Source of the DNA: a virus
Taxonomy: Duplodnaviria; Caudoviricetes
Strand: one strand, 5' to 3'
DNA: 64,000 nucleotides
IMG/VR virus record: IMGVR_UViG_2634166419_000001
Span: 9,824 to 73,823 of that record
The notes beneath the pieces were generated by a model. That model worked only from the letters and a program-made list of their open reading frames with translations, was not told the origin of the DNA and did no database searches. The position numbers and the translations under genes are program-made. Of the stretch, positions 10,941 through 54,783 are shown one piece after another (position 1 is the first letter of the stretch; each line of letters begins with the position of its first letter).

Positions 10941-11201
10941 ATGATTAAAGGAAAAACAAAGTCAGGATTCAAATTTGAAATTGATGATGCAGTATTAAAT
11001 GACTACGAAACAATCGAACTATTAGGCGACGTGGAAGAAAATCCGTTACTATTTCCGAAAGTTGTCAAACGAATTTTAGGCGATGAACAGACTACAGCTT
11101 TAAAAAATCATATTCGTGATGAAAAAGGACGAGTGAATGCAGAAAAAATGACTGCAGAAGTTACGGAAATTTTTCAAAGTCAGGCTCAACTAAAAAAATA
11201 A
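10941..11201 (+). CDS. Tail assembly chaperone (gpG-like)
   Basis: Between the tail tube and tape-measure genes; ends in slippery A AAA AAA TAA. Confidence 0.75.
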   Translation: MIKGKTKSGFKFEIDDAVLNDYETIELLGDVEENPLLFPKVVKRILGDEQTTALKNHIRDEKGRVNAEKMTAEVTEIFQSQAQLKK

Positions 11202-11215
11202 TAATCCTTGCCAAA

Positions 11216-11593
11216 ATGCTCAAAGTAGACGAAGATGCGATTATTTGCGACTTAGCTGAGACATACAATATCTACGATTATAGACAGCTACCTGTATCAA
11301 AGGTGGCTGTTTTTGTTTGTGGTTTAAGGTCAGATTCGCGAATCATGATGAAGATTAGCGATTCTAAATTGCCTTTAGACACGTTGTTACTTGCTGGAGT
11401 AGCTGACAGATTAAGTATCATGCTTTGGCAAAATACGAAAGATGGTCAACGCGGAAAAAATCAACCTGTATCTATTGTTGATCAACTAACTAAGCAGCAA
11501 ATCGAACGCGAAGAAGTATCATTTGAGTCTGGCAAGGATTTTGAAGCAGAAAAAGCAAGAATTTTAAGAGGGGGTGTGGTGAATGGCGACTGA
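11216..11593 (+). CDS. Tail assembly chaperone, -1 frame part (gpT-like)
   Basis: The -1 frame is open from the A7 run at 11192-11198 into this ORF. Confidence 0.7.
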   Translation: MLKVDEDAIICDLAETYNIYDYRQLPVSKVAVFVCGLRSDSRIMMKISDSKLPLDTLLLAGVADRLSIMLWQNTKDGQRGKNQPVSIVDQLTKQQIEREEVSFESGKDFEAEKARILRGGVVNGD

Positions 11594-12113
11594 ATTAGGT
11601 CAAGCGTACGTCCAAATTATGCCATCAGCGAAAGGTATTAGTGGTATGATTCAGAAGCAAATAGAGCCTGAATCAAAATCGGCTGGTGCTAGTGCAGGAA
11701 TTAGTTTGGGTAAATCAATGATTACCGCAGTTACAGCTGCTATTGCGGCTGCTGGGATTGGAAAGATGTTTGCTGCATCAATTTCTGAAGGAGCGGCACT
11801 TCAACAATCTTTGGGTGGTGTTGAGACGCTATTTAAGAGTAGCGCTGATACGGTCAAAAACTACGCTAACCAAGCATACAGAACAGCCGGAGTGTCGGCT
11901 AATAAGTACATGGAAAATGTTACTTCCTTCTCGGCTTCCTTAATTTCTTCGCTTGGTGGCGATACTGCTAAGGCTGCAGAGTTAGCCAATACGGCTATGG
12001 TTGATATGTCGGATAACGCAAACAAGATGGGTACCGATATGGAATCCATCACACAAACTTACCAATCTTTAGCGCGTGGAAATTATGCCATGTTAGATAA
12101 CTTGAAGCTCGGT
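11583..12113 (+). CDS. Tape measure protein, exon 1
   Basis: MATELGQAYVQIMPS...GNYAMLDNLKLG; joins in frame to YGGTKSE at 13024. Confidence 0.9.
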
Positions 12114-12211
12114 AGAAAATCCATAGCCGAGTATAAACCTAGTGAAAACGGTGAAACTCTAAGTTTAGCGGCTTAGACAATACCGTGCTAAGCAAGAATT
12201 AGATACTTTGC

Positions 12212-12240
12212 TTGAATTTTACGTATTAGTTTGATAAAAT
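12212..12240 (+). promoter_or_regulatory. Intron-internal sigma-A promoter for the homing endonuclease
   Basis: TTGAAT-17 nt-TAAAAT with TGn extension. Confidence 0.55.
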
Positions 12241-12270
12241 AAAACATATAAATACGTGGAGGGTTGCAAA

Positions 12271-12831
12271 GTGTGGAAGAAAATTGGTAGAAATCCAAAT
12301 TATTCAATTAATGAAAACGGCGAAGTTAGAAATGATAAAACAAATCATATAAAAAGTTGTTTTGTAAATCCTAAAAATAACTATCTCATGGTTGACCTTT
12401 ACGAAAATAATCAACCAAAGAAAGTCCCTATTCATAGATTGATTGCAGAGGCTTTTATTCCAAATCCAGAGAATAAAGCGACTGTAGATCATATAGATGG
12501 AAACAGACAAAACAACGATATTTCTAATTTGAGATGGGCAACTTACTCAGAGAACAATTCTCGGTTTGGAACCGTTGGAGTAAGAAGCGAAGCGGTTGTT
12601 GTTACTAAGTATAAAGAAGAACGGAAAAAACGAGGCGGTGGACATTTAGCGTGGTTAGATGTCATCGAAAAACTTGAGTTCGAGAGTATATCGGCAACTG
12701 CAGAATATTTCGGTTGTACTATTTCTAACGTTTCTTTAATGTTAGAAAAAGGTACAATCGGGCAGCGCGGAAAAACGAGAGGATATCAATTTTCTTATAA
12801 GAACGGTAAACGTTCGACTTATAATTCTTGA
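12271..12831 (+). CDS. Intron-encoded NUMOD4-HNH homing endonuclease (I-HmuI-like)
   Basis: WKKI...YSINENGEVRN, HRLIAEAFIPNP, VDHIDGNRQNNDISNLRW; GGAGG RBS before GTG 12271; lies in the P6 loop. Confidence 0.9.
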   Translation: MWKKIGRNPNYSINENGEVRNDKTNHIKSCFVNPKNNYLMVDLYENNQPKKVPIHRLIAEAFIPNPENKATVDHIDGNRQNNDISNLRWATYSENNSRFGTVGVRSEAVVVTKYKEERKKRGGGHLAWLDVIEKLEFESISATAEYFGCTISNVSLMLEKGTIGQRGKTRGYQFSYKNGKRSTYNS

Positions 12832-13023
12832 AAGTGTAACGACTATCGAAACAGAGAAAACACCTGAAAGGGTGTTTTTTTTAATGGAGTAGAGTAGGAT
12901 TCAAGCGAATTCGAAGCGCTAGGATGCAGAAATGCATAAGAGATAGTCTACTCTCTATGGTGACATAGAGCAGCTCTAAAAGAGCGGTCATGAGTTAGCG
13001 ACTTGTGGCGAATGTGTACCAAG

Positions 13024-14853
13024 TATGGTGGTACGAAATCTGAACTGGAACGCTTGATGCGAGATGCAGAAAAACTGACTGGTGAGCATTACACAGTTGG
13101 GGATTTTGCCGATACCGTCAAGGCGATTCATGCAGTGCAAGAGAGCATGGGCATTACAGGCACAACAGCCAAAGAAGCAGCAACAACTTTAAGTGGTTCA
13201 CTAGCAAGTATGAAGGCAGCGTTTAGTGATGTTTTGGGTAAATTATCGTTAGGTCAAGATATTGTTCCGTCTTTAAATGCGTTGGCTGAAACAACTGCTA
13301 CATTCTTATTTGGCAATTTCATTCCGATGGTTGGTAACATTCTAAAAGGATTACCAACTGCAATCACCACGTTCATTTCTGCAGCAATCCCTCAAATGAC
13401 CGCAGGATTACAATCGGTGTTTTCTGATATAGGTGTAGATATTGATTTTTCGGGGTTAACTTCTAAATTTTCAGGAATTATAACTGCTATTCAGCCGATA
13501 ATCAACGGACTAAAAACAGCTTTTGGACAGCTTCCAAGCCTATTTAATTCAGTAGTAAGTTCTGTTACACCGGTCATTAATACATTAGTCAGTGGCTTTA
13601 GTCGATTAGATTTTAGTGGTATTCAGACATTGATTTCTTCAATTATTCCGGCTATTCAAACTGGATTTAGCACAATGATGTCTATTGTCGGTCCAGCAAT
13701 CGATAGTGTGGTCAATTCGTTTGTATCAATGTGGAATGCAGCACAACCACTTATTTCTGTGATTAGCGGTGCTTTGATGCCTGCTTTTCAAATCTTAGGT
13801 TCATTTTTAGGCGGTGTGATTAAAGGTGCATTAATGGGTATATCGATGGCTTTTGATGCGGTAAAAATTGCAATCGAATTTTTAACACCAATTATTACAA
13901 TTGTCGTAAATGCATTTAGTACATTATCGCCAATTTTGAGTACGATTGCTCAATGGGTAGGCACGGTAATTGGATTATTTGGTAATTTGGGTACTGCTGG
14001 TCAAGGATTGAGCAGCTTCATTCAGTCAGCGTGGTCAAACATTCAAACAGCTATTTCTACTGCAGCAAGTGTAATCGGAACAGTTATTGAATATATTAAA
14101 CTAGCTTTTTCGGGAGTTGGTAATGCTGCTCAAGTTGTCAAAAATATCATATCGATTGTTTGGATGGCTATTGGCGATGTCATTCGAACAGTGGCATCAG
14201 CAATCAGAAGTGCGATGTCAGCTGCAGGAAGCGCGTTTAGTGGCTTTGGAAGTGTCGTATCAGCTATATCAGGTACGATTAAAGGCGTTATAAACGGTGT
14301 AAAAAATACTTTTAATAGTTTAAAAAATATTAACTTAGTTGGTGCAGGTAGCGCAATCATGAATGGATTTTTAGGCGGTTTGCAAGCTGGTTTTAATAAA
14401 GTAAAAGGATTTGTTGGTGGTATTGCAAGCTGGATTAAAGAACATAAAGGTCCAATCAGCTATGACCGTAAAATCTTGATTCCGGCCGGTAACGCAATTA
14501 TGAAAGGTCTGAATGAAGGGTTAAGCACACAATTTAAAGATGTGCAATCAAATGTTTTAGGCATGGCTGATACACTGGCTAATACATTTAATCCTGATTT
14601 GAATGCAGAATTGAGTGCAGTTGGCGATGTGCAATTAGCTGTATCGTCAAAAGGTTTATATGATAGTTCTAGCCAACAATCAAACAAAGAATCATATTTA
14701 ATGGACTTATTGGTTAAAATGGCTAATCGTCCAGTAATTATCGAAAATAAAATGGATGGTAAAAAGATTGGTCAGATGGTAGCTGAACCGGTGACAGATG
14801 AACAAAATAAACGACAAGCAATATTAAATGCTGTGTATGGATTGGGGTGGTAA
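13024..14853 (+). CDS. Tape measure protein, exon 2 (spliced product ~786 aa)
   Basis: YGGTKSELERL..., amphipathic repeats, HKGPISYD motif. Confidence 0.9.
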   Translation, partial: YGGTKSELERLMRDAEKLTGEHYTVGDFADTVKAIHAVQESMGITGTTAKEAATTLSGSLASMKAAFSDVLGKLSLGQDIVPSLNALAETTATFLFGNFIPMVGNILKGLPTAITTFISAAIPQMTAGLQSVFSDIGVDIDFSGLTSKFSGIITAIQPIINGLKTAFGQLPSLFNSVVSSVTPVINTLVSGFSRLDFSGIQTLISSIIPAIQTGFSTMMSIVGPAIDSVVNSFVSMWNAAQPLISVISGALMPAFQILGSFLGGVIKGALMGISMAFDAVKIAIEFLTPIITIVVNAFSTLSPILSTIAQWVGTVIGLFGNLGTAGQGLSSFIQSAWSNIQTAISTAASVIGTVIEYIKLAFSGVGNAAQVVKNIISIVWMAIGDVIRTVASAIRSAMSAAGSAFSGFGSVVSAISGTIKGVINGVKNTFNSLKNINLVGAGSAIMNGFLGGLQAGFNKVKGFVGGIASWIKEHKGPISYDRKILIPAGNAIMKGLNEGLSTQFKDVQSNVLGMADTLANTFNPDLNAELSAVGDVQLAVSSKGLYDSSSQQSNKESYLMDLLVKMANRPVIIENKMDGKKIGQMVAEPVTDEQNKRQAILNAVYGLGW

Positions 14854-25472: not shown

Positions 25473-26621
25473 ATGGAAATGTTAGAGGCGGTTTCAAGTT
25501 ATATTCATATACCTTTTTGTGAGCATATCTGTTATTATTGCGATTTTAATAAAGTCTTTTATGAAGGACAACCCGTAGATGAGTACCTAGAAAAACTGGA
25601 TTTGGAAATGAAATTATGGATAGAAAAATATCCGCAACAACAAACACCAACCATCTACATTGGGGGAGGGACGCCAACTTCTTTAAATGATGCTCAGTTA
25701 CGTTCCTTATTAACAAGCGTAACCAAATATTTTGATGTGACGACAACCAAAGAATTTACTGTTGAAGCGAACCCAGGAGATTTAACAGAAAATAAACTTC
25801 ATATTATGCAAGAATTTGGGGTCAATCGGTTATCAATGGGTGTGCAGACTTTTAATGACCGCTTGCTAAAGAAAATTGGTCGGAAGCATACGGTTAAAGA
25901 TGTGGATGATACACTGAACTTTTTAGCGAAGAATCATTTTGATAATGTGAGTATTGATTTGATTTATGCTTTACCAGGTCAGACGCAGCAAGATTTTGAT
26001 GAGACCTTAAAGCAAGCACTTAGTTATGACTTGCCACATTACTCGATGTATTCTTTGATTTTGGAAAATAAGACGATGTTTATGAATTGGGTGCGCAAAG
26101 GTCGATTAGAATTACCTAGCCAGGAAGAAGAGGCGGGAATGTTTGCCTTGGCGATGGATGTGATGTGTCAAAAAGGTTATGAGCAGTATGAAGTTTCAAA
26201 CTTTGCTAAACCAGGCTTTCAGTCACAGCACAACCTTGTTTACTGGAATAATGAGTACTACTTTGGCTTCGGCGCTGGGGCTAGTGGATATGTCGACAAA
26301 GTAAGATATAAAAATCATGGCCCGATTCAACATTATTTAAATCCTTTACGAAACCAACAATTGCCCATTTTCTCTGAAGAAACCTTAGATCAAAAAGCAC
26401 GTATGGAAGAGGAGATGTTTTTAGGGCTCCGTAAAGCACAAGGCGTCTCCATTGCGCACTTTAATGAGAAATTTGGTGTTGATTTCCATCAAATATACGG
26501 TTCTGTTGTTGGAAATTATGTATCTAAAGGATTACTCAATCAAACGGATAACGGCTATATTCAACTAACCAAAAAAGGACTTTTTCTAGGGAATGAAGTA
26601 TTTGAGGGATTCTTACTTTAG
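25473..26621 (+). CDS. hemW: Radical SAM heme chaperone (HemN-like)
   Basis: YIHIPFCEHICYYCDF and HNLVYW. Confidence 0.95.
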   Translation: MEMLEAVSSYIHIPFCEHICYYCDFNKVFYEGQPVDEYLEKLDLEMKLWIEKYPQQQTPTIYIGGGTPTSLNDAQLRSLLTSVTKYFDVTTTKEFTVEANPGDLTENKLHIMQEFGVNRLSMGVQTFNDRLLKKIGRKHTVKDVDDTLNFLAKNHFDNVSIDLIYALPGQTQQDFDETLKQALSYDLPHYSMYSLILENKTMFMNWVRKGRLELPSQEEEAGMFALAMDVMCQKGYEQYEVSNFAKPGFQSQHNLVYWNNEYYFGFGAGASGYVDKVRYKNHGPIQHYLNPLRNQQLPIFSEETLDQKARMEEEMFLGLRKAQGVSIAHFNEKFGVDFHQIYGSVVGNYVSKGLLNQTDNGYIQLTKKGLFLGNEVFEGFLL

Positions 26622-27004: not shown

Positions 27005-28174
27005 TCATTGACTGCCATTTTGAATGCCATTGACAAAATCGACGAACTTATCCAAAGTGCCGACTTCGTATTCTTTAGATAAGTGACCATACGTGTCCAT
27101 AGTCACGGTAATGGATCCGTGGCGCAGACGAGTTTGCACCTCCTTAAGGTTAGCACCTGCCTCGATTAAAAAACTCGCGTGCGTGTGCCTGGTTGCGTGG
27201 TTGCCATAAAAAGGCACGCCCGCGTTTTTGGTTGCTCTTCTGAGTTGATAATAAACATCAGAGGAAAATACCCAGTCGCCCTCAAGTTTGCTAAAAATAG
27301 GCGGCTCGCCTGTTAAGCCAATTGCTAAACGGGCCTTTTTCTTATACGCTCGCCACGTTTTTAAAATCCTTAATGTTTGCTCATCAACGGGTAACACTGC
27401 AACACTAGCCTTTGTTTTAGGTTTGCCAACAGTCAGCTTACTATCAACAAGCTTGAGCGTTTTGTCAATGTTTAAGGTTTTAGCCTTAAAATCTATATCG
27501 GACCATTCGAGCGCGAGAGCCTCATTGATGCGCAAGCCAGTGAAGAAAAGTAAACGAAACAGCGCGTACATGAAATAACCATCATAATCAGATTGGTTAT
27601 CTTTTAGATACGCCATAAGTGTATTAAAATCTTGTTTAGCGTACACTTTAACGCGTTTGTGAGCATCTCCTTTAGGCTTAATAACAGACTCCATTGGGTT
27701 AATACTTATCAAGTCCATGGTAATGGCGTATTTAAAGATACGACTAGCCTTGCATGTCAGTGCTCCGAGTGCTGAGTATTGTAAATACCAATCATTCACC
27801 GCCTGTTGGCATTCCACCCTTGTGATGTCCTTAATAGGTCGGTCACCAAATTTAGGGTATAGATAGTTTTTTAAGATGTTTTTGGTTCCTTGATACGTTA
27901 CATCCTGCACGGTTAACTTGTAGCTGGTTAACCAAAGCTCGGCCACCTCTTTAAAAGTTAAGCTATCTATGCTATCATTTTCTTGTGAGGCCCACGTATC
28001 TGCATCAAATTCAGCGAGTAACTGACTGCAGGCGCGTTGGGCTTGTTTTTTTGTCTCAAAGCCACGCCTTGTGGTCTTGATACGCTTTCCTGTTTTCGGG
28101 TCAGTACCAAGATAAGCGGAAAATTGCCACGCTTCTTGGCCGTTCTTTTTGGTGTATTTTTTAAAATTTGCCAT
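27005..28174 (-). CDS. int: Tyrosine integrase
   Basis: TGLRINE, HATRHTHA, LRH and DTYGH catalytic motifs; N-terminal arm-binding domain. Confidence 0.96.
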   Translation of the reverse strand: MANFKKYTKKNGQEAWQFSAYLGTDPKTGKRIKTTRRGFETKKQAQRACSQLLAEFDADTWASQENDSIDSLTFKEVAELWLTSYKLTVQDVTYQGTKNILKNYLYPKFGDRPIKDITRVECQQAVNDWYLQYSALGALTCKASRIFKYAITMDLISINPMESVIKPKGDAHKRVKVYAKQDFNTLMAYLKDNQSDYDGYFMYALFRLLFFTGLRINEALALEWSDIDFKAKTLNIDKTLKLVDSKLTVGKPKTKASVAVLPVDEQTLRILKTWRAYKKKARLAIGLTGEPPIFSKLEGDWVFSSDVYYQLRRATKNAGVPFYGNHATRHTHASFLIEAGANLKEVQTRLRHGSITVTMDTYGHLSKEYEVGTLDKFVDFVNGIQNGSQ

Positions 28175-39349: not shown

Positions 39350-39799
39350 ATGGCGAATGAGGAAAACTTAAACGGGCATGGATTTCATGAACGACCAGCG
39401 AGCGAACAGCGAGAAATTGCTAAAATGGGCGGAATAGCATCAGGAAAAGCCAGAAGGAAAAAAGCCAACCTAAAAAAGGCTTTAAATACCATTTTGACAG
39501 CCGAGGCTACTAACAAGACTGCAGCAGTATTGGAGTCTTTGGGGTTCGAAAATACAAACGAGATGGCCATCATGCTATCTCTGACGCAGCAAGCTTTAAA
39601 AGGTAACGTGCGAGCGATTGAATTAATTAATAAGATGGCCACGAGTGAGAAAGATGAGCTTGATCGCAAAGAACAAAAAGCTCGTATCAAACAGCTTGAG
39701 TTATCAAACAAGGCAGCTGCAGAAGATACAACCGTTAACGATGAGCAGATTATTATCGTTGACGAATGGCAGGAAGATGAGGTGGAAACAGATGGCTAA
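39350..39799 (+). CDS. terS: Terminase small subunit
   Basis: MANEENL...KMGGIASGKARR...ALKGNVRA; directly upstream of terL. Confidence 0.78.
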   Translation: MANEENLNGHGFHERPASEQREIAKMGGIASGKARRKKANLKKALNTILTAEATNKTAAVLESLGFENTNEMAIMLSLTQQALKGNVRAIELINKMATSEKDELDRKEQKARIKQLELSNKAAAEDTTVNDEQIIIVDEWQEDEVETDG

Positions 39800-41135
39800 A
39801 GTTTTCAATGTGCAAAAAAATGTCAACCCTCATTTTAAAAGCGTCTGGAATTCCAAGTATCCTTATAACATCCTAAAAGGTGGCCGGAACTCATTCAAAA
39901 GCTCAGTCATTGCACTGTTGTTAGCTTATAAAATGATACAGTTTACACGTCAAGGACAGGTAGCTAATGTAATCGTCATTCGCAAGGTTGGCAATACTAT
40001 TCGCGACTCCGTTTATAAAAAAATTCATTGGGCTTTAAATATGCTAAACGTTGGCTCACAATTTAAGCCGACTGTATCGCCTTTTAACATCATTCATAAA
40101 AAGACGGGTTCGACCTTTTATTTTTATGGGCTGGATGACTTCCAAAAGCTAAAATCAAACGACGTGTCTAATATCATAGCCGTTTGGTACGAAGAGGCCG
40201 CGGAGTTTAAGAATGAGGAAGAGTTTAACCAAACCAATATCACGTTTATGCGGCAAAAGCATCCTAGACTTAACTATGTGCAGTTTTTCTGGTCTTACAA
40301 TCCTCCACGTAATCCATACAGCTGGATTAACGAATGGGTTGAGAGTTTAGAAGGTGAAAAAGATTATCTGATACACTCATCTAGCTATTTAGACGACGAA
40401 CTCGATTTGATACACGAGCAAACTTATGCGGAAATTGAACGAATTAAACGCAATGACTATGAGTATTATCGGTACTTGTATTTAGGCGAGCCAGTTGGTC
40501 TTGGCACAAACGTATATAATTTGAATCTTTTTAAACAAATAAATGCTATACCAAGCGAAGAACGCATCGTCTATGTATATTTTGCATGCGACTCTGGTCA
40601 CCAACAATCAGCGACAACCTGCCTGTGTTTGGCTTTGACCAACGCAGATAACGTGTATTTGATTGACACTTATTACTATTCTCCTGCAGGTAAGGTTGAC
40701 AAAAAAGCGCCGAGTGAATTATCGCGTGACTTGCACGACTTTGAACAGTCAATGATGAGTCAACCCCTTTTGATAACGCGGAACGTTCGCAAGCGCACCA
40801 TAGATAGCGCTGAGGGAGCTTTGAGAAATCAGTACAAGAAGGACTACCACGTGAAATGGCATCCGGTTAAAAAGAAAAAGAAAATAGTCATGACGGAATT
40901 CGTTCAGTCGCTTTTAGCGGAAGGACGATTTTTTTATTTACCGACCGAAAACAATCTAAAGTTTTTTATCGAAGAGCATAAAAAGTACCAGTGGGACGAG
41001 AAAACTGTCATGAATGATGATCCTCACGTTATCAAAGAGGACGACCATACTTGTGACGCGCTGCAGTATTTCGTGGTCGATAATTTAAAGGACCTTAAGC
41101 TTAAAGATAAGACCGGCGCGAAAATTATGAAGTAA
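39792..41135 (+). CDS. terL: Terminase large subunit (PBSX family)
   Basis: GGRNSFKS, WYEEAAE, SYNPP, DHTCDA; ATG 39792 after GAGGTGG. Confidence 0.93.
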   Translation: MAKVFNVQKNVNPHFKSVWNSKYPYNILKGGRNSFKSSVIALLLAYKMIQFTRQGQVANVIVIRKVGNTIRDSVYKKIHWALNMLNVGSQFKPTVSPFNIIHKKTGSTFYFYGLDDFQKLKSNDVSNIIAVWYEEAAEFKNEEEFNQTNITFMRQKHPRLNYVQFFWSYNPPRNPYSWINEWVESLEGEKDYLIHSSSYLDDELDLIHEQTYAEIERIKRNDYEYYRYLYLGEPVGLGTNVYNLNLFKQINAIPSEERIVYVYFACDSGHQQSATTCLCLALTNADNVYLIDTYYYSPAGKVDKKAPSELSRDLHDFEQSMMSQPLLITRNVRKRTIDSAEGALRNQYKKDYHVKWHPVKKKKKIVMTEFVQSLLAEGRFFYLPTENNLKFFIEEHKKYQWDEKTVMNDDPHVIKEDDHTCDALQYFVVDNLKDLKLKDKTGAKIMK

Positions 41136-50769: not shown

Positions 50770-53700
50770 ATGGCTAAGACATTAACAGCGACCCTTGCTT
50801 TGCGTGATAAGTTTACTAAGACTTTAAGTAAGATTGACTCAAGTCTTGCAGCAACTGTTCAACGTATGGAGGAGTTAAAGCAAAAGGCAACAGGACCTGC
50901 ACAAGCCTTTAATACCTTAGCAAACAAAGCACAGAGCGCCATGAGTCGCCTGAGTAATGGTATTAAATCAGGCATGAGTGCAGCAAGCAACGTAGTCAAG
51001 TCGGGCGCGAGTCGCATTATTAGCTTATTTGGCAACTTTGGTAACCGTATTTCCAGCGCATTAAAATTAGACAGCGCTAAGAGTGCATTTAGCAATACAT
51101 TTAACACATTTACAAGTACTGCCAAACGCGTCATGAGTAATGTCGTATCTAGCGTACAGACAGGCATGGCTAAAGTTGGGATGGCGATTAAAGCTAGCGC
51201 ACCTTACTTTAAACAGTTTGGCCAAGACTTTAAAAAAGGATTTGTCCAATCAGGTCAAGTGGCTGTGGGATTTGGCGACAAGTTGCTAAACGTGACTAAG
51301 GTTGCAGCTCTAGGTGGTGCGGCCGCAGTCGTTGGATTAGGTAAAAAGGTCTATGATGTGGCCGGTGGCTTTGACCAACAAATGGCCAGAGTTAACGCGA
51401 TTACTGATGAGGTTGGCGTGTCATACGCTGACTTACGTAAAAAGGCAATCGACTTAGGGGCACAGACAGCCTTTAGTGCGAAAGAGGCAGCCGCTGGTAT
51501 GGAAAACATGGCATCTGCTGGTTTCAATACCAAAGAGATTTACGACTCGATGCAAGGGGTGCTTGCGTTGGCCGCCGTATCAGGTGGAGACGTGGCCCTT
51601 GCAGCAGAAAACAGTGCATCGGCTTTACGTGGCTTTGGATTAGAGGCAAGTCAAGCTGGTCACGTTGCGGATGTGTTTGCGCAAGCTGCAGCCAAGACGA
51701 ACGCGGAAGTAGCTGACATAGGCGAGGCTATGAAATATATCTCGCCGGTGGCACATTCCATGGGCATCTCACTTGAAGAAACAGCCGCCGCGGTTGGTAT
51801 CTTATCAGACAGTGGGATTAAAGGTTCCCAGGCCGGTACCTCTCTACGTGGGGCGCTCTCTCGTCTGGCTAAACCCACAGACGCAATGCGCGAAACTATG
51901 GACGCGTTGGGGTTGTCTTTTTACGACTCAAATGGAAACATGAAATCTTTAGCAGACCAAGTCGGTATGTTAAAAACAGCCTTTAAGGGCTTAACGCCTG
52001 AGCAACAACAAAATGCCTTAGTAACCTTGTACGGCCAAGAGTCATTATCAGGTATGTTAGCCTTAATCAGTGCAGGGCCTGAAAAATTGCGAGAATTGAC
52101 TAAGTCCTTTGAGCAATCAGGTGGGGCTGCAGATAAGATGGCTCAACAGATGCAGAATAACCTACCATCTAAGATTGAGCAGATGTTTGGTGCGCTCGAA
52201 TCTGTGGCTATCCGTATTGGTGACAAGCTGTTTCCAATTATCGCGCCACAAATTGAGAAGTTAACCGACTGGATTGACAAGACTTTTAGTGAGGTCAATA
52301 TTGATAAGTTTATCGACAATCTAGGCAAGTATGGCCAAGTGCTTGTAAGTACTTTTAACGATGTTAAAGGTCCAGTATCAGAGGCTTTTGGCGCAGTCAT
52401 GGACAGCCTAGACAAGCTTAACGGTAAGTTTGGCAGCGCTAAAAGTGTGGATAGATTTAAACAGACGATGGAGTCTGTAGGCGACGCAATTAAAGGCGTG
52501 GCCAAGTTTGCAGAAAATCATAGCGATGCCATTGCTAAAATCATCGACATGCTACCTAAACTGGTGGTCGGTTTTGCAGCCTTTAAAATTGGTAAAGGCG
52601 TGCTCAGTCCATTACTTAAATTTGGTGGGGGTCTAGCCTCAATGGCCAAAGCATCGGGTACACTAGTTAAAAATCTTGCCAAGCTTAAAAAGCCTAAAGT
52701 ACCTAGTGTACCAAGTACGCCGAGTGCGCCTACACCAAGCACACCAACCGTACCAACAGCGCCGGACACGACTGCGGTCGATACCGCGGCTAACAGTGCA
52801 CAGAGCGCGGCTGGTAAGTGGGTGCAATATGGCAAGGCACTATTTCTTGTGGGTGCTGGCGTGGCTTTAGTAGGTGCAGGATTTTGGCTTATGGCGGATG
52901 CTGCGACTAATCTAGCCAGTGCAGGTGGGGCTGCCATTGCTACATTCTTCGGCATGGTGGTAGCTATCGGAGCACTTCTCGCGGTCGTCGCTTATCTCGG
53001 ACCACAGCTCTCAGCAGGTGCAGTAGGCATGTTGGCCTTTGGTGCAATGACTGTTCTAGTGGCTGCAGGTATGTGGCTTGCCTCAACCGCAGCGATACAG
53101 TTAGCCAGTGCAGGTGGTGTCGCAATTGCAGTGTTCTTTGGTATGTTCGTGGCAGTGGGCTTGCTTGCTGCAGTGTTTGCCGCTTTAGGTCCAGCCTTAA
53201 CAGCTGGCGCTATTGGTATGCTAGCCTTTGGCGCGGCTATGGTGTTAGTAGGGCTCGCCCTTGCGATTGCTACACCGGCGCTGGAAGTATTACCGCCCGT
53301 TATTGAGGCACTCGGCACAGCCTTTGCTACTGCAGCAGAGGGCGTTGGTAACGCGGTCAACACGATTTTAGATGGCGTGTCTCAAGTAATCGACTCGATT
53401 GGTAATGGCTTGCGAAACGTATTAGACGGAGTGGCTGGTGTGTTTGACAGTATTGGTAATGCTGCTTTAAACGCTGGGAAAGGATTAAAAGCAGCCGCCT
53501 CTGGTCTTAAGACGATTGCAGGTATAGGCGCTTGGGGCTTAGCTAAGGCCTTGGGAGCATTGACCGCAGGGTTAGGTTCGTTAACCGCTCACAGTGGCGC
53601 GTTACAAGAGCTGGGCAGCGGCATGCAGACACTTGCTGCTGCGACAATGATGCTTGGTGCAGGTGTGGCGGTGTTTAGCGCCCTATCTAGTGCAATTATT

Positions 53701-54783
53701 AGTGTAGGTAGCGCTATGCAAGTCATGTCAGGCAACTTTACGACTTTTACAAGTCAATTGACTAATCTAGGCGCTAACATCATGGTGGCTGTTCCGCCGT
53801 TTATGGTGTTGGCAAACGCAAGCACGCAATTAAGCGCGACCTTATTAGCTAGCATGGCTGGTATCACGATTTTTGCGAGTGCTTTAACTGTGTTAGTCGG
53901 TATGGCGAGCGTGGCAGGTGCGGCCGTAATGATGCTAGCTAGTGGCATCGCCTCAATCGGTGGCGCAATTGGCGCTTATACAGGCGCAATCATGACCGCT
54001 GTTGCTATAACAATGTTGTTAGGTGCAACCGCTCAAATGGTGGCCGCCTTAGTTGTGGCAAGCTTTACCTCTAGTATGGCACAAGCGAGTGCTGCGGTTA
54101 CAAGTGGCATGTCGCAGATGACGGCTGCAGTTACCGCTGGTATGGCCATCGCTTTAAGTATCGTTACCGCTGGTATGGCACAGATGACTGCCGCCTTTAG
54201 TGCGGGTATGGCCGCTGCTTTAAGTATCGTTACTGCAGGCAGTGCGTCAATCGTCTCTGCGTTTAGTGGTTTAGCAGGTCAGTTGAGAGCGGCTGGCTCA
54301 TACGCTATGGCAGGTCTGACTGCAGGACTTGCCAGTGGTGCAGGTGGTGCTATCGCGCAAGCGCGATCCATCGCCAATCAGATTGCCTCTACTATTCAAG
54401 GGGCACTTAAAATTCACTCACCGTCAAGGGTTATGATGGAAATCGGGGACTTTGTCGGCCAAGGCTTGGCGAAAGGTATCGAGGGCACCAAACGCATGGT
54501 GCAGTTATCAAGTAGCAAGCTAGCCGATCAAGTTAAACCTAAACCTTTAGGCGGTGAGGGCCCAGACTTTGACCCAGGCGAAATGGGATACACGATGACG
54601 CTTGATGATCGTAACAAGATGCAGGCTAGCGGCACGCAAGCGGTGTATGTAAATCAAAAACAAGTCACGCCTCAGGTAACGTTGAACGTAACAAACAATA
54701 ACGGCGAGCCGGTCGATACAGATGCGCTCGTTGCTAAAGTTGAGGACGCAATCATCGCTGCGGCTGAGTCAGATTTAAGTTAG
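50770..54783 (+). CDS. Tape measure protein (TP901-family core)
   Basis: TAFSAKEAA...GIKGSQAGTSLR...IHSPSRV. Confidence 0.93.
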   Translation: MAKTLTATLALRDKFTKTLSKIDSSLAATVQRMEELKQKATGPAQAFNTLANKAQSAMSRLSNGIKSGMSAASNVVKSGASRIISLFGNFGNRISSALKLDSAKSAFSNTFNTFTSTAKRVMSNVVSSVQTGMAKVGMAIKASAPYFKQFGQDFKKGFVQSGQVAVGFGDKLLNVTKVAALGGAAAVVGLGKKVYDVAGGFDQQMARVNAITDEVGVSYADLRKKAIDLGAQTAFSAKEAAAGMENMASAGFNTKEIYDSMQGVLALAAVSGGDVALAAENSASALRGFGLEASQAGHVADVFAQAAAKTNAEVADIGEAMKYISPVAHSMGISLEETAAAVGILSDSGIKGSQAGTSLRGALSRLAKPTDAMRETMDALGLSFYDSNGNMKSLADQVGMLKTAFKGLTPEQQQNALVTLYGQESLSGMLALISAGPEKLRELTKSFEQSGGAADKMAQQMQNNLPSKIEQMFGALESVAIRIGDKLFPIIAPQIEKLTDWIDKTFSEVNIDKFIDNLGKYGQVLVSTFNDVKGPVSEAFGAVMDSLDKLNGKFGSAKSVDRFKQTMESVGDAIKGVAKFAENHSDAIAKIIDMLPKLVVGFAAFKIGKGVLSPLLKFGGGLASMAKASGTLVKNLAKLKKPKVPSVPSTPSAPTPSTPTVPTAPDTTAVDTAANSAQSAAGKWVQYGKALFLVGAGVALVGAGFWLMADAATNLASAGGAAIATFFGMVVAIGALLAVVAYLGPQLSAGAVGMLAFGAMTVLVAAGMWLASTAAIQLASAGGVAIAVFFGMFVAVGLLAAVFAALGPALTAGAIGMLAFGAAMVLVGLALAIATPALEVLPPVIEALGTAFATAAEGVGNAVNTILDGVSQVIDSIGNGLRNVLDGVAGVFDSIGNAALNAGKGLKAAASGLKTIAGIGAWGLAKALGALTAGLGSLTAHSGALQELGSGMQTLAAATMMLGAGVAVFSALSSAIISVGSAMQVMSGNFTTFTSQLTNLGANIMVAVPPFMVLANASTQLSATLLASMAGITIFASALTVLVGMASVAGAAVMMLASGIASIGGAIGAYTGAIMTAVAITMLLGATAQMVAALVVASFTSSMAQASAAVTSGMSQMTAAVTAGMAIALSIVTAGMAQMTAAFSAGMAAALSIVTAGSASIVSAFSGLAGQLRAAGSYAMAGLTAGLASGAGGAIAQARSIANQIASTIQGALKIHSPSRVMMEIGDFVGQGLAKGIEGTKRMVQLSSSKLADQVKPKPLGGEGPDFDPGEMGYTMTLDDRNKMQASGTQAVYVNQKQVTPQVTLNVTNNNGEPVDTDALVAKVEDAIIAAAESDLS

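Follow-up and report, generated by a model that had tools for sequence, protein, structure and literature searches.

The DNA discussed here is a 64,000-nt stretch, referred to as the window, that covers positions 9,824-73,823 of the virus record IMGVR_UViG_2634166419_000001 (Duplodnaviria; Caudoviricetes). The gene for its tape-measure protein (TMP) lies in two pieces, which are separated by an insert with the architecture of a group I intron. The three parts are the following:

11583-12113, plus strand: TMP exon 1, 177 codons; PHROG 6900 'tail length tape measure protein', E 1.1e-70
12114-13023, plus strand: group I intron, 910 nt, IA-type architecture without P2 and with P7.1 and P7.2, ending in the terminal G at 13023
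13024-14853, plus strand: TMP exon 2, 609 codons and a stop; PHROG 58 'tail length tape measure protein', E 1e-63

Taken as an ORF, exon 1 reads on into the intron and stops at 12176. Its product is 79% identical in amino acids to the N-terminal part of the uninterrupted TMP of Javan263. The last bases of exon 1, CTCGGT, end at 12113 and the intron begins at 12114. As the first-pass annotation had claimed, excision of 12114-13023 (910 nt) joins the two TMP ORFs in frame; the computed product is 2361 nt long, or 786 codons and one stop, and its junction reads ...DNLKLG-YGGTK... This motif is uninterrupted at the junction codon in all four intron-less homologues examined (Javan263, Javan221, SM1 PblA and phiLC3), and the TMP of Javan263, with 787 aa, is 66% identical to the joined protein. 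The insertion point is in phase 0 and lies between two highly conserved codons (...LKLG and YGGT...). Removal of the insert restores a conserved frame, as it should for a group I intron. The TMP is matched best by prophages of S. infantarius, S. equinus and S. ruminicola. Judged from its sequence, the TMP gene of this prophage is predicted to be intact and not broken.

All of the coordinates and motifs proposed in the first-pass annotation (splice sites, P1, P10, P3, P4, P6, P7 and the terminal G at 13023) are present. The helices of the ribozyme are arranged as follows:

12108-12131, plus strand: P1, exon bases 12108-12113 paired with the internal guide sequence GCCGAG at 12126-12131, with U12113·G12126 at the 5' splice site
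12121-12125, plus strand: P10 5' strand CCATA, whose partner is exon-2 TATGG at 13024-13028
12138-12143, plus strand: P3 5' strand CCTAGT, whose partner is GCTAGG at 12918-12923
12148-12186, plus strand: P4 (ACGGT at 12148-12152 with ACCGT at 12182-12186) enclosing P5 (12158-12163 with 12172-12177)
12193-12200, plus strand: P6 5' strand CAAGAATT, paired with AATTCTTG at 12823-12830; the promoter-like site and the HNH ORF lie in its loop
12841-12847, plus strand: P7 5' strand GACTATC, whose partner is GATAGTC at 12942-12948; it crosses P3 to make the core pseudoknot
12857-12912, plus strand: P7.1 (12857-12878, a hairpin and then a U run) and P7.2 (12897-12912), between P7 and the P3 3' strand
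12918-13009, plus strand: P3 3' strand, P8 (12924-12937), P7 3' strand, P9 (12953-12970), P9.1 (12973-12985) and P9.2 (12987-13009)

The fold was scored on an alignment of 52 distinct homologous introns (A1). The pairs scored were those of the helices first proposed together with P5, P7.1, P7.2, P8, P9, P9.1 and P9.2, which gives 84 proposed pairs and 4158 cells. 92.9% of these cells are paired, compared to 32.7-46.3% when the 3' partners are slid by 1-3 columns. Compensatory changes on both sides are found at 51 of the 84 pairs, including the pair between the exon Leu codon and the guide in P1, and none of 500 shuffles attained the observed value on any of five measures. The fold is far above chance expectation.

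The support is spread over most of the helices. P1 (helix 1) is paired in 98.4% of cells in the 52 introns, 51 of which retain the U·G pair of the 5' splice site. Pair 9:31 is CG in 30 sequences, GC in 20 and AU in 2, thus the third base of the exon Leu codon covaries with the guide; across the family the guide is adapted to three synonymous Leu codons. P3 (helix 3) is 99.7% paired, and its pair 43:870 is AU in 29, CG in 20 and UA in 3 sequences. P4 (helix 4) is 100% paired with compensatory changes at four of five pairs, and helices 5 and 6 of the P4-P5 region are 100% and 80% paired. In P6 (helix 7), 93.6% of cells are paired and all eight pairs have compensatory changes; in ORF-less relatives this stem closes a short loop. 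Six of the seven pairs of P7 (helix 8) are invariant across all 52 sequences. In the P7.1/P7.2 region helix 9 is 76% paired, helix 10 is 91% paired, and helix 11 is 100% paired with compensatory changes at five of six pairs. Helices 12-17, in the 12918-13009 region, are 87-100% paired and most of their pairs have compensatory changes. The terminal guanosine, or omega-G, at 13023 (alignment column G922) is invariant in all 52 introns. P10 (helix 2) is the weakest helix. The CCATA/TATGG pairing that had been proposed is present, but it is paired in 77.6% of cells and has no compensatory changes. A terminator reading of the 12857-12878 hairpin was considered and rejected, as the hairpin is P7.1.

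Subgroup IA, in the classification of Michel and Westhof 1990, is said to have extra P7.1 and P7.2 elements between the P7 5' strand and the P3 3' strand. Both are found at this position in the window intron. It also has the hallmarks of group I introns as a whole, that is, a P1 formed with a guide and carrying the U·G pair, the omega-G, and a P3-P9 core with the P3/P7 pseudoknot.

The loop of P6 holds two features:

12212-12240, plus strand: promoter-like site (TTGAAT, 17 nt, TG-extended TAAAAT) in the intron upstream of the HNH ORF, with a putative promoter function
12271-12831, plus strand: I-HmuI-like HNH homing-endonuclease ORF, 186 aa and a stop; the longest ORF runs from GTG 12256

The most likely start of the HNH frame is GTG 12271, which has a GGAGG Shine-Dalgarno sequence at 12258-12262, rather than GTG 12256, since in the longer ORF the first five residues lie outside the alignments with homologues. 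Most relatives in A1 have ATG as the start codon. The ORF matches Pfam HNH_3 (PF13392) with E 6.8e-14 and 51.7 bits against a cut-off of 24.8, and it is similar to I-HmuI over its full length (PDB 1u3e, E 2.3e-14, ORF residues 2-177 against residues 3-171, an alignment that takes in the DH...N...N stretch). NUMOD4 and the I-HmuI NUMOD-like domain gave weak scores (E 0.06 and 0.13). The ORF is also assigned to PHROG 59. I-HmuI and the window ORF are of the same endonuclease type, with HNH_3 and NUMOD-like DNA-binding parts, but they differ in host gene and target sequence. Landthaler et al. 2004 are said to have found that homing by I-HmuI is initiated by a nick, and by analogy the homing of the window intron is likely to start in the same way. 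The promoter-like site lines up among the HNH-bearing introns of A1 (columns about 120-155). The number of promoter-like sites in the region is not higher than in shuffles.

A search with group I models, which the first-pass annotation had suggested as a check, gave a divided answer. Against a gathering threshold of 50 bits for Rfam RF00028, the window intron scored 26.7 bits (E 1.7e-4) with its 3' half alone aligned, and at that threshold Rfam had no matches in the whole window or in the whole 73.8-kb provirus record. Several ORF-less copies from the same site score above the cut-off: MissG1 with 69.4 bits, IPP23 with 64.3, 33888 with 63.4, L017 with 52.4 and one more with 52.1. Of these L017 is a natural ORF-less derivative that is 99% identical to the ribozyme parts of the window intron. 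Other ORF-less copies are below it, Javan271 with 43.3 bits and L020 without a listing at E 0.001. The ORF-bearing copies fare like that of the window, as r1t gave no match and C41431 gave 28.2 bits. Rfam misses the window copy because the 630-nt insert in P6, with its ORF, splits the core and breaks the alignment to the model. The sub-threshold score is a limit of detection and not the absence of the feature, and since the ORF-bearing r1t copy is missed too, the lack of matches at the gathering threshold is no argument against an intron.

When 75 IMG/VR loci were fetched with a core 17-mer, 54 of them were at the same TMP site. The first-pass annotation had described a tape-measure intron as rare rather than unprecedented. 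Precedents do exist, the closest being r1t at the same site and not Bacillus, but with 54 of 75 fetched loci occupied at this site the intron is common and not rare. Among 63 copies at the site, an ORF of 164-191 aa is present in 35 and absent from 28, and some of these 28 retain remnants of its ends. Identity to the window is 75-99% in the ribozyme parts and 55-90% in the flanking 300-nt exon stretches. The same-site intron was found in Lactococcus phage r1t and in several Streptococcus and Lactococcus phages. HNH-bearing copies include Javan520 (a S. pyogenes prophage), proPhi7 and Lactococcus phages 28201, 50901 and 62501. The TMP location was taken from annotation for MissG1, IPP23, 33888, r1t, Javan520, proPhi7, C41431 and Javan271, and 28201, 50901 and 62501 are rows of search matches alone. 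The same arrangement is retained in many phages of three genera, some of them deposited as complete genomes. It had been expected that annotators would call such a gene broken, and the GenBank records of homologues do list two separate tape-measure or 'minor tail' CDSs that flank the insert. The MissG1 record has an ncRNA annotated at the intron. Both the promoter-like site and the hairpin with its U run are conserved across the family.

The family first became known from Lactococcus phage r1t. van Sinderen et al. 1996 (Mol Microbiol 19:1343) reportedly described an ORF of this phage within a self-splicing group I intron. The r1t intron, with ORF41 between ORF40 and ORF42, is located as in the window, in the tape-measure gene after ...LKLG and before YGGT. 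Its ribozyme has the same architecture with the ORF in the P6 loop, and the 3' halves are 74-78% identical (74% over 99% of the query). The HNH ORF and r1t ORF41 are equal in length and 75.8% identical in amino acids. The window intron shares with r1t the site, a homologous TMP, the ribozyme and the ORF, and belongs to the r1t type. The window intron resides in a streptococcal-type prophage and the exons are only about 64-68% identical. The window guide GCCGAG fits a CTC Leu codon, whereas r1t pairs CTG with GCTCAG, and P10 (CCATA) is clearer in the window than in r1t. PMC4177764 cites Lactococcus phage r1t as an intron-bearing phage. By sequence comparison the window intron is not new in kind, as r1t, whose intron was reported in 1996, has it at the identical insertion point, and the HNH proteins of the two are 76% identical. 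It is a member of a widespread family, real but ordinary. The ORF-less Streptococcus phages MissG1, IPP23 and 33888 have the same site and ribozyme, with 3' halves 81-84% identical and a guide identical to that of the window. In their introns, which are 275-277 nt long, a short hairpin in P6 takes the place of the window's ORF.

Foley et al. 2000 (J Virol 74:611) are said to have found an intron in the lysin gene of S. thermophilus phages together with its deletion derivatives. As in the family discussed here, ORF-bearing and internally deleted ORF-less copies coexist at one late-gene site in phages of lactic acid bacteria, but the host gene, a lysin, differs. The lysin or tail-hydrolase genes of Staphylococcus phages StB12 and IME1367_01 also contain a ribozyme half about 69% similar to that of the window. 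The first-pass annotation had pointed to tape-measure introns in prophages of the Bacillus cereus group, and this was correct. According to Tourasse and Kolstø (2008, PMC2504315), these introns, IVS1-3, are group I introns of the IA1/IA2 classes, some with and some without a homing-endonuclease gene, whose P1 and guide are fitted to the local target. By that description, through which alone they were compared, they resemble the window intron in being group I introns of prophage tape-measure genes, but they occupy three other sites in another TMP family (over 1200 aa) in other hosts. The portions of PMC6195288, PMC5601072, PMC3952083 and PMC3888941 that were available deal with other introns. 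In the literature on group I introns in tape-measure genes (r1t, P335, Streptococcus, HNH), so far as its texts were accessible, no account was found of the streptococcal TMP intron of the window or of a splicing experiment on an r1t-type intron.

The data of all four public runs compared, X19, X20, X3 and X5, are contigs. One 1494-nt contig from X19, an RNA library, skips 12102-13023, joining 12101 to 13024 with 12 other letters at the joint. This contig is about 88% identical to the window, and since its codons are those of known intron-less DNA alleles it may represent an intron-less relative and not a spliced product. X20, also an RNA library, gave six short pieces, one of them within the HNH ORF. 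In X3, summed contig depth, which is not a measure, was 99.5 in the intron bins 12243-12792 and up to 283 near the intron ends versus 313-2575 in the exon bins, and one joint runs from 12112 to 13030. This pattern fits a mixture of intron-plus and intron-minus alleles. A 20.9-kb contig from X5, possibly DNA, covers the whole stretch with the intron at about 95% identity (166 differences). There is a presence/absence polymorphism at this exact site.

The anatomy of the insert, the exact exon junction, a fold backed by covariation and the homology of the ORF point to one reading, that a mobile group I intron, with a self-excising IA ribozyme and an HNH homing gene in the P6 loop, interrupts the TMP gene of a siphovirus prophage of streptococcal type. 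This is very probably correct. Both the covariation of the fold and the I-HmuI homology agree with the original claim that the TMP gene holds a group I intron and, within it, an HNH endonuclease ORF. The intron RNA would fold into an IA-type ribozyme, with P1 made of the last six exon bases and the guide, and a core from P3 to P9. Two transesterification steps, initiated by guanosine, would then excise the intron and restore the 786-aa TMP frame. The window copy presumably splices, and tail assembly would then require splicing. The HNH gene in the P6 loop may be expressed with its own Shine-Dalgarno sequence and promoter-like site. The endonuclease is probably active and, by analogy with I-HmuI, would nick or cut the intron-less alleles of co-resident phages, close to the insertion site. 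Recombinational repair would copy the intron into the cut allele, which completes homing.

It could be argued that the element has a genuine ribozyme but has lost its mobility, with an HNH gene that is silent or inactive and an intron that is inherited vertically with the prophage on its way to an ORF-less derivative. The loss of the ORF from 28 of 63 same-site copies, with remnants in some, and the GTG start of the window ORF, where most relatives have ATG, are in keeping with this. However, the ORF is of full length (186 aa, as r1t ORF41) without frameshift or stop, HNH_3 is well above its cut-off, the match to I-HmuI runs from end to end, and the Shine-Dalgarno sequence and promoter-like site are retained. 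An immobile element therefore seems unlikely. That the gene is simply broken, with a free-standing HNH cassette inserted into a tail-defective prophage and no splicing, is almost certainly wrong, even though no group I match in the window reaches the Rfam gathering score and pipelines annotate two separate CDSs in homologues. The sequences on either side of the ORF together make up a complete group I core that covaries strongly, and several ORF-less copies pass Rfam. The insert is bounded exactly by the U·G pair and the terminal G, with a phase-0 junction that restores a conserved motif, and the arrangement recurs in many phages, from three genera and with complete genomes among them. A free-standing HNH insertion was rejected on account of the complete covarying core around the ORF and the exact in-frame junction.

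The intron might also act as a regulator, in which the amount of TMP or its timing is governed by splicing efficiency, the internal promoter and the U-run hairpin (P7.1). The conservation of the promoter-like site and of the hairpin with its U run would suit such a role. However, the U run pairs with an upstream A run (helices 9-10) within P7.1, so that its conservation is explained by the fold of the ribozyme, and promoter-like sites are no more numerous than in shuffles. Intron-less alleles are common in close relatives, therefore no regulatory role is required, and this alternative is highly improbable.

The mobile intron reading adds nothing to what is known of group I introns, and its main value lies in annotation. 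The same correction is due in many deposited phage genomes where an HNH gene or a gap lies between two 'tape measure' or 'minor tail' CDSs. Pipelines will go on mis-calling the ORF-bearing copies, because the Rfam group I model misses such copies, r1t included. The family also offers a natural series for the homing cycle, with full-length, partly deleted and ORF-less copies at one site. It is a long shot that the intron is more than a passenger, either a splicing checkpoint that makes TMP supply, and with it tail assembly, depend on the state of the induced cell or, through its endonuclease, a weapon against co-induced intron-less relatives. The features that bring such roles to mind are the conserved internal promoter-like site, the terminator-like U-run hairpin P7.1 and the guide that tracks the third base of synonymous Leu codons. 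The same record holds a second prophage, an example of a possible co-induced relative.

The insert in the tape-measure gene had been read in the first-pass annotation as a group I intron with a homing endonuclease. This reading is correct down to the helices and the intron is real; it is a member of a long-known and common family, here called r1t-type after Lactococcus phage r1t. All the motifs on which the reading was based were found at their coordinates, and the proposed removal of 910 nt leaves 2361 nt, which read as 786 codons plus a single stop and are joined at ...DNLKLG/YGGTK.... The features of the split gene are as follows.

11583-12176, open reading frame (ORF) of the tape-measure N-part (PHROG 6900, E 1.1e-70)
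12114-13023, group I intron
12212-12240, promoter-like site (TTGAAT, 17 nt, TG-extended TAAAAT), inside the intron and upstream of the HNH ORF
13024-14853, tape-measure C-part (PHROG 58, E 1e-63)

An ORF with an HNH_3 domain sits between the two parts. In all four uninterrupted tape-measure proteins examined (Javan263, Javan221, SM1 PblA and phiLC3) the sequence ...DNLKLG/YGGTK... is continuous at the junction codon; that of Javan263 has 787 aa and is 66% identical overall to the window protein. The first base of the intron is A and the last is G, whereas the exon bases before and after it are both T, therefore the cut is unable to slide and the splice sites are exact to the base. The tape-measure protein is required for siphovirus tail assembly, and this phage would have no other route to one, so that its tail assembly would depend on splicing. 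A pair of short ORFs (10941-11201 and 11216-11593) lies directly upstream of the gene, the usual place of the tail-assembly chaperones. An Rfam match to the astrovirus frameshift element in exon 1 (12029-12084; 16.9 bits, cut-off 70) is almost certainly due to chance.

By its sequence the insert is a ribozyme, more than a plain insertion. Pairs were counted on an alignment of 52 distinct homologous introns, using the helices proposed in the first-pass annotation together with P5, P7.1, P7.2, P8, P9, P9.1 and P9.2. Standard pairs occur in 92.9% of 4158 cells, and in 32.7-46.3% after a shift of the 3' partners by 1-3 columns; this comparison favours the proposed pairs as the structure was taken from the window sequence. 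The compensatory changes are not accounted for by such a bias; both sides have changed in 51 of the 84 pairs. On each of five measures all 500 shuffles fell short of the observed value. The exon Leu codon in P1 has C, G or A as its third base, and the guide sequence covaries with it (CG 30, GC 20, AU 2); the splice-site U·G is conserved in 51 of the 52 introns. Six of the seven P7 pairs are invariant and the terminal G does not vary. P10 is the weakest helix, with 77.6% paired and no compensatory changes in the alignment. Extra helices P7.1 and P7.2 between P7 and the 3' strand of P3 define subgroup IA; both hairpins are present there and no P2 helix was seen, therefore the architecture is of the IA type. 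The hairpin at 12857-12882 with its run of eight T resembles an intrinsic terminator and gives a weak Rfam match to RNAI. The terminator reading was rejected as an explanation of the hairpin, because its T run and an A run upstream of it together form P7.1, a helix conserved in the family; the hairpin may also end transcripts of the HNH gene.

The ORF is predicted to encode an I-HmuI-like HNH homing endonuclease. The HNH_3 match has an E value of 6.8e-14, the matches to NUMOD4 and the I-HmuI NUMOD-like domain are weak, and residues 2-177 align with the solved I-HmuI structure 1u3e (E 2.3e-14), the D-H...N...N stretch being matched in the same register. The alignment of the relatives begins at residue 6 of the 191-aa ORF, where most have ATG and the window has GTG (12271), 8 nt downstream of GGAGG. 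This start makes a product of 186 aa most likely, the same length as the HNH protein of r1t (ORF41). Since promoter-like sites in the region are not more numerous than expected by chance, it is conservation alone, the site at 12212-12240 being aligned in the HNH-bearing relatives, that suggests separate transcription of the endonuclease from within the intron.

The r1t ORF41 protein is 75.8% identical to that of the window; ORF41 is flanked by ORF40 and ORF42, annotated as the two halves of the tape-measure gene, and occupies the same ...LKLG/YGGT site. The r1t intron was reportedly described in 1996. Phage r1t is listed among phages with group I-like introns (PMC4177764). The tape-measure introns of Bacillus cereus-group prophages mentioned in the first-pass annotation are indeed described in PMC2504315; they occupy different sites in a different tape-measure family. 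In Cluster J mycobacteriophages, capsid genes and minor-tail genes contain introns that are spliced (PMC3706429). Introns in late and tail genes were thus already established.

The r1t-type family is widespread and common. Megablast and blastn searches of phage records found the same element in the same place in other phages. Javan520, an S. pyogenes prophage, and proPhi7 share the arrangement of the window and r1t, as do Lactococcus phages 28201, 50901 and 62501, judged from match tables only. In the copy C41431 the ribozyme is the same and the ORF differs. Streptococcus phages MissG1, IPP23 and 33888 have ORF-less forms of 275-277 nt, whose P6 stem has a short loop in place of the ORF. A 17-base core motif retrieved 75 loci from IMG/VR, 54 of which have the same tape-measure site occupied; the other 21 were excluded because one or both exon motifs were missing. 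Adding the window copy and eight from GenBank to these 54 gives a set of 63, of which 52 are distinct. In Staphylococcus phages StB12 and IME1367_01, split coding sequences for a lysin or tail hydrolase flank a ribozyme half that resembles the 3' half of the window intron (about 69% similarity), therefore this ribozyme lineage also occurs in lysis genes of staphylococcal phages.

An ORF of 164-191 aa is present in 35 of the 63 copies and absent from 28. Some short copies (e.g. the loci L017, L020 and L060) retain bases from both ends of the ORF region and are internal deletions of ORF-bearing introns. Identity to the window is 75-99% in the ribozyme parts and 55-90% in the flanking 300-nt exon stretches; the exon-1 values of Javan271 and locus L029 are artefacts, as the exon there is very short. 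In public runs, the intron is present in one 20.9-kb contig (about 95% identity to the window) and another contig (about 88%) has the exons joined without it. The identity gap, the ORF-less copies and the two contigs appear to be signs of mobility and decay.

The window lies in a provirus record of 73.8 kb with only one r1t-type intron copy. Siphovirus late genes (capsid, tail, tape-measure and a 1660-aa fibre with an endosialidase-chaperone domain) fill the first 23 kb and are followed by:

25473-26621, HemN-like radical-SAM gene, downstream of the first phage's late genes
27005-28174, minus strand, integrase gene that opens a second prophage
39645-41135, terminase of the second prophage
50770-54783, uninterrupted 1337-aa ORF of the second prophage with a minor-tail-protein domain

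The last is probably the tape-measure gene of the second prophage. An integrase, a separate terminase and this ORF after the radical-SAM gene indicate two prophages in the record, separated by a host gene (window 25473-64000). The host is probably a streptococcus of the S. infantarius/S. ruminicola/S. equinus group, because the tape-measure N-part of the first phage most resembles prophages of these species (76-79% amino acid identity).

The practical value of these results lies in the correct annotation of the split gene and in an Rfam blind spot for ORF-bearing copies. At the gathering threshold Rfam gives no group I match for the window or the provirus record; the window intron scores 26.7 bits, with only its 3' half properly aligned. 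The ORF-less copies of MissG1, IPP23 and 33888 pass the 50-bit cut-off with scores of 69.4, 64.3 and 63.4, and the MissG1 record has an ncRNA annotated at the intron position. The low score of the window is explained by the 630-nt insert in P6, since L017, a natural ORF-less derivative with ribozyme parts 99% identical to the window, passes at 52.4 bits, whereas ORF-bearing C41431 (28.2 bits) and r1t (no match) fail. Some ORF-less copies are also below the cut-off: L020 is unlisted at E 0.001 and Javan271 reaches 43.3 bits. The tape-measure gene of Javan271, an S. iniae prophage, seems to have two tandem introns (about 1009-2199). In the first of these an HNH ORF is annotated (1304-1816), and the second, an ORF-less r1t-type intron (1902-2199), gives the sole Rfam match of the pair. 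A mini-exon of about 22 nt, encoding (M)LDNLKLG, lies between the two.
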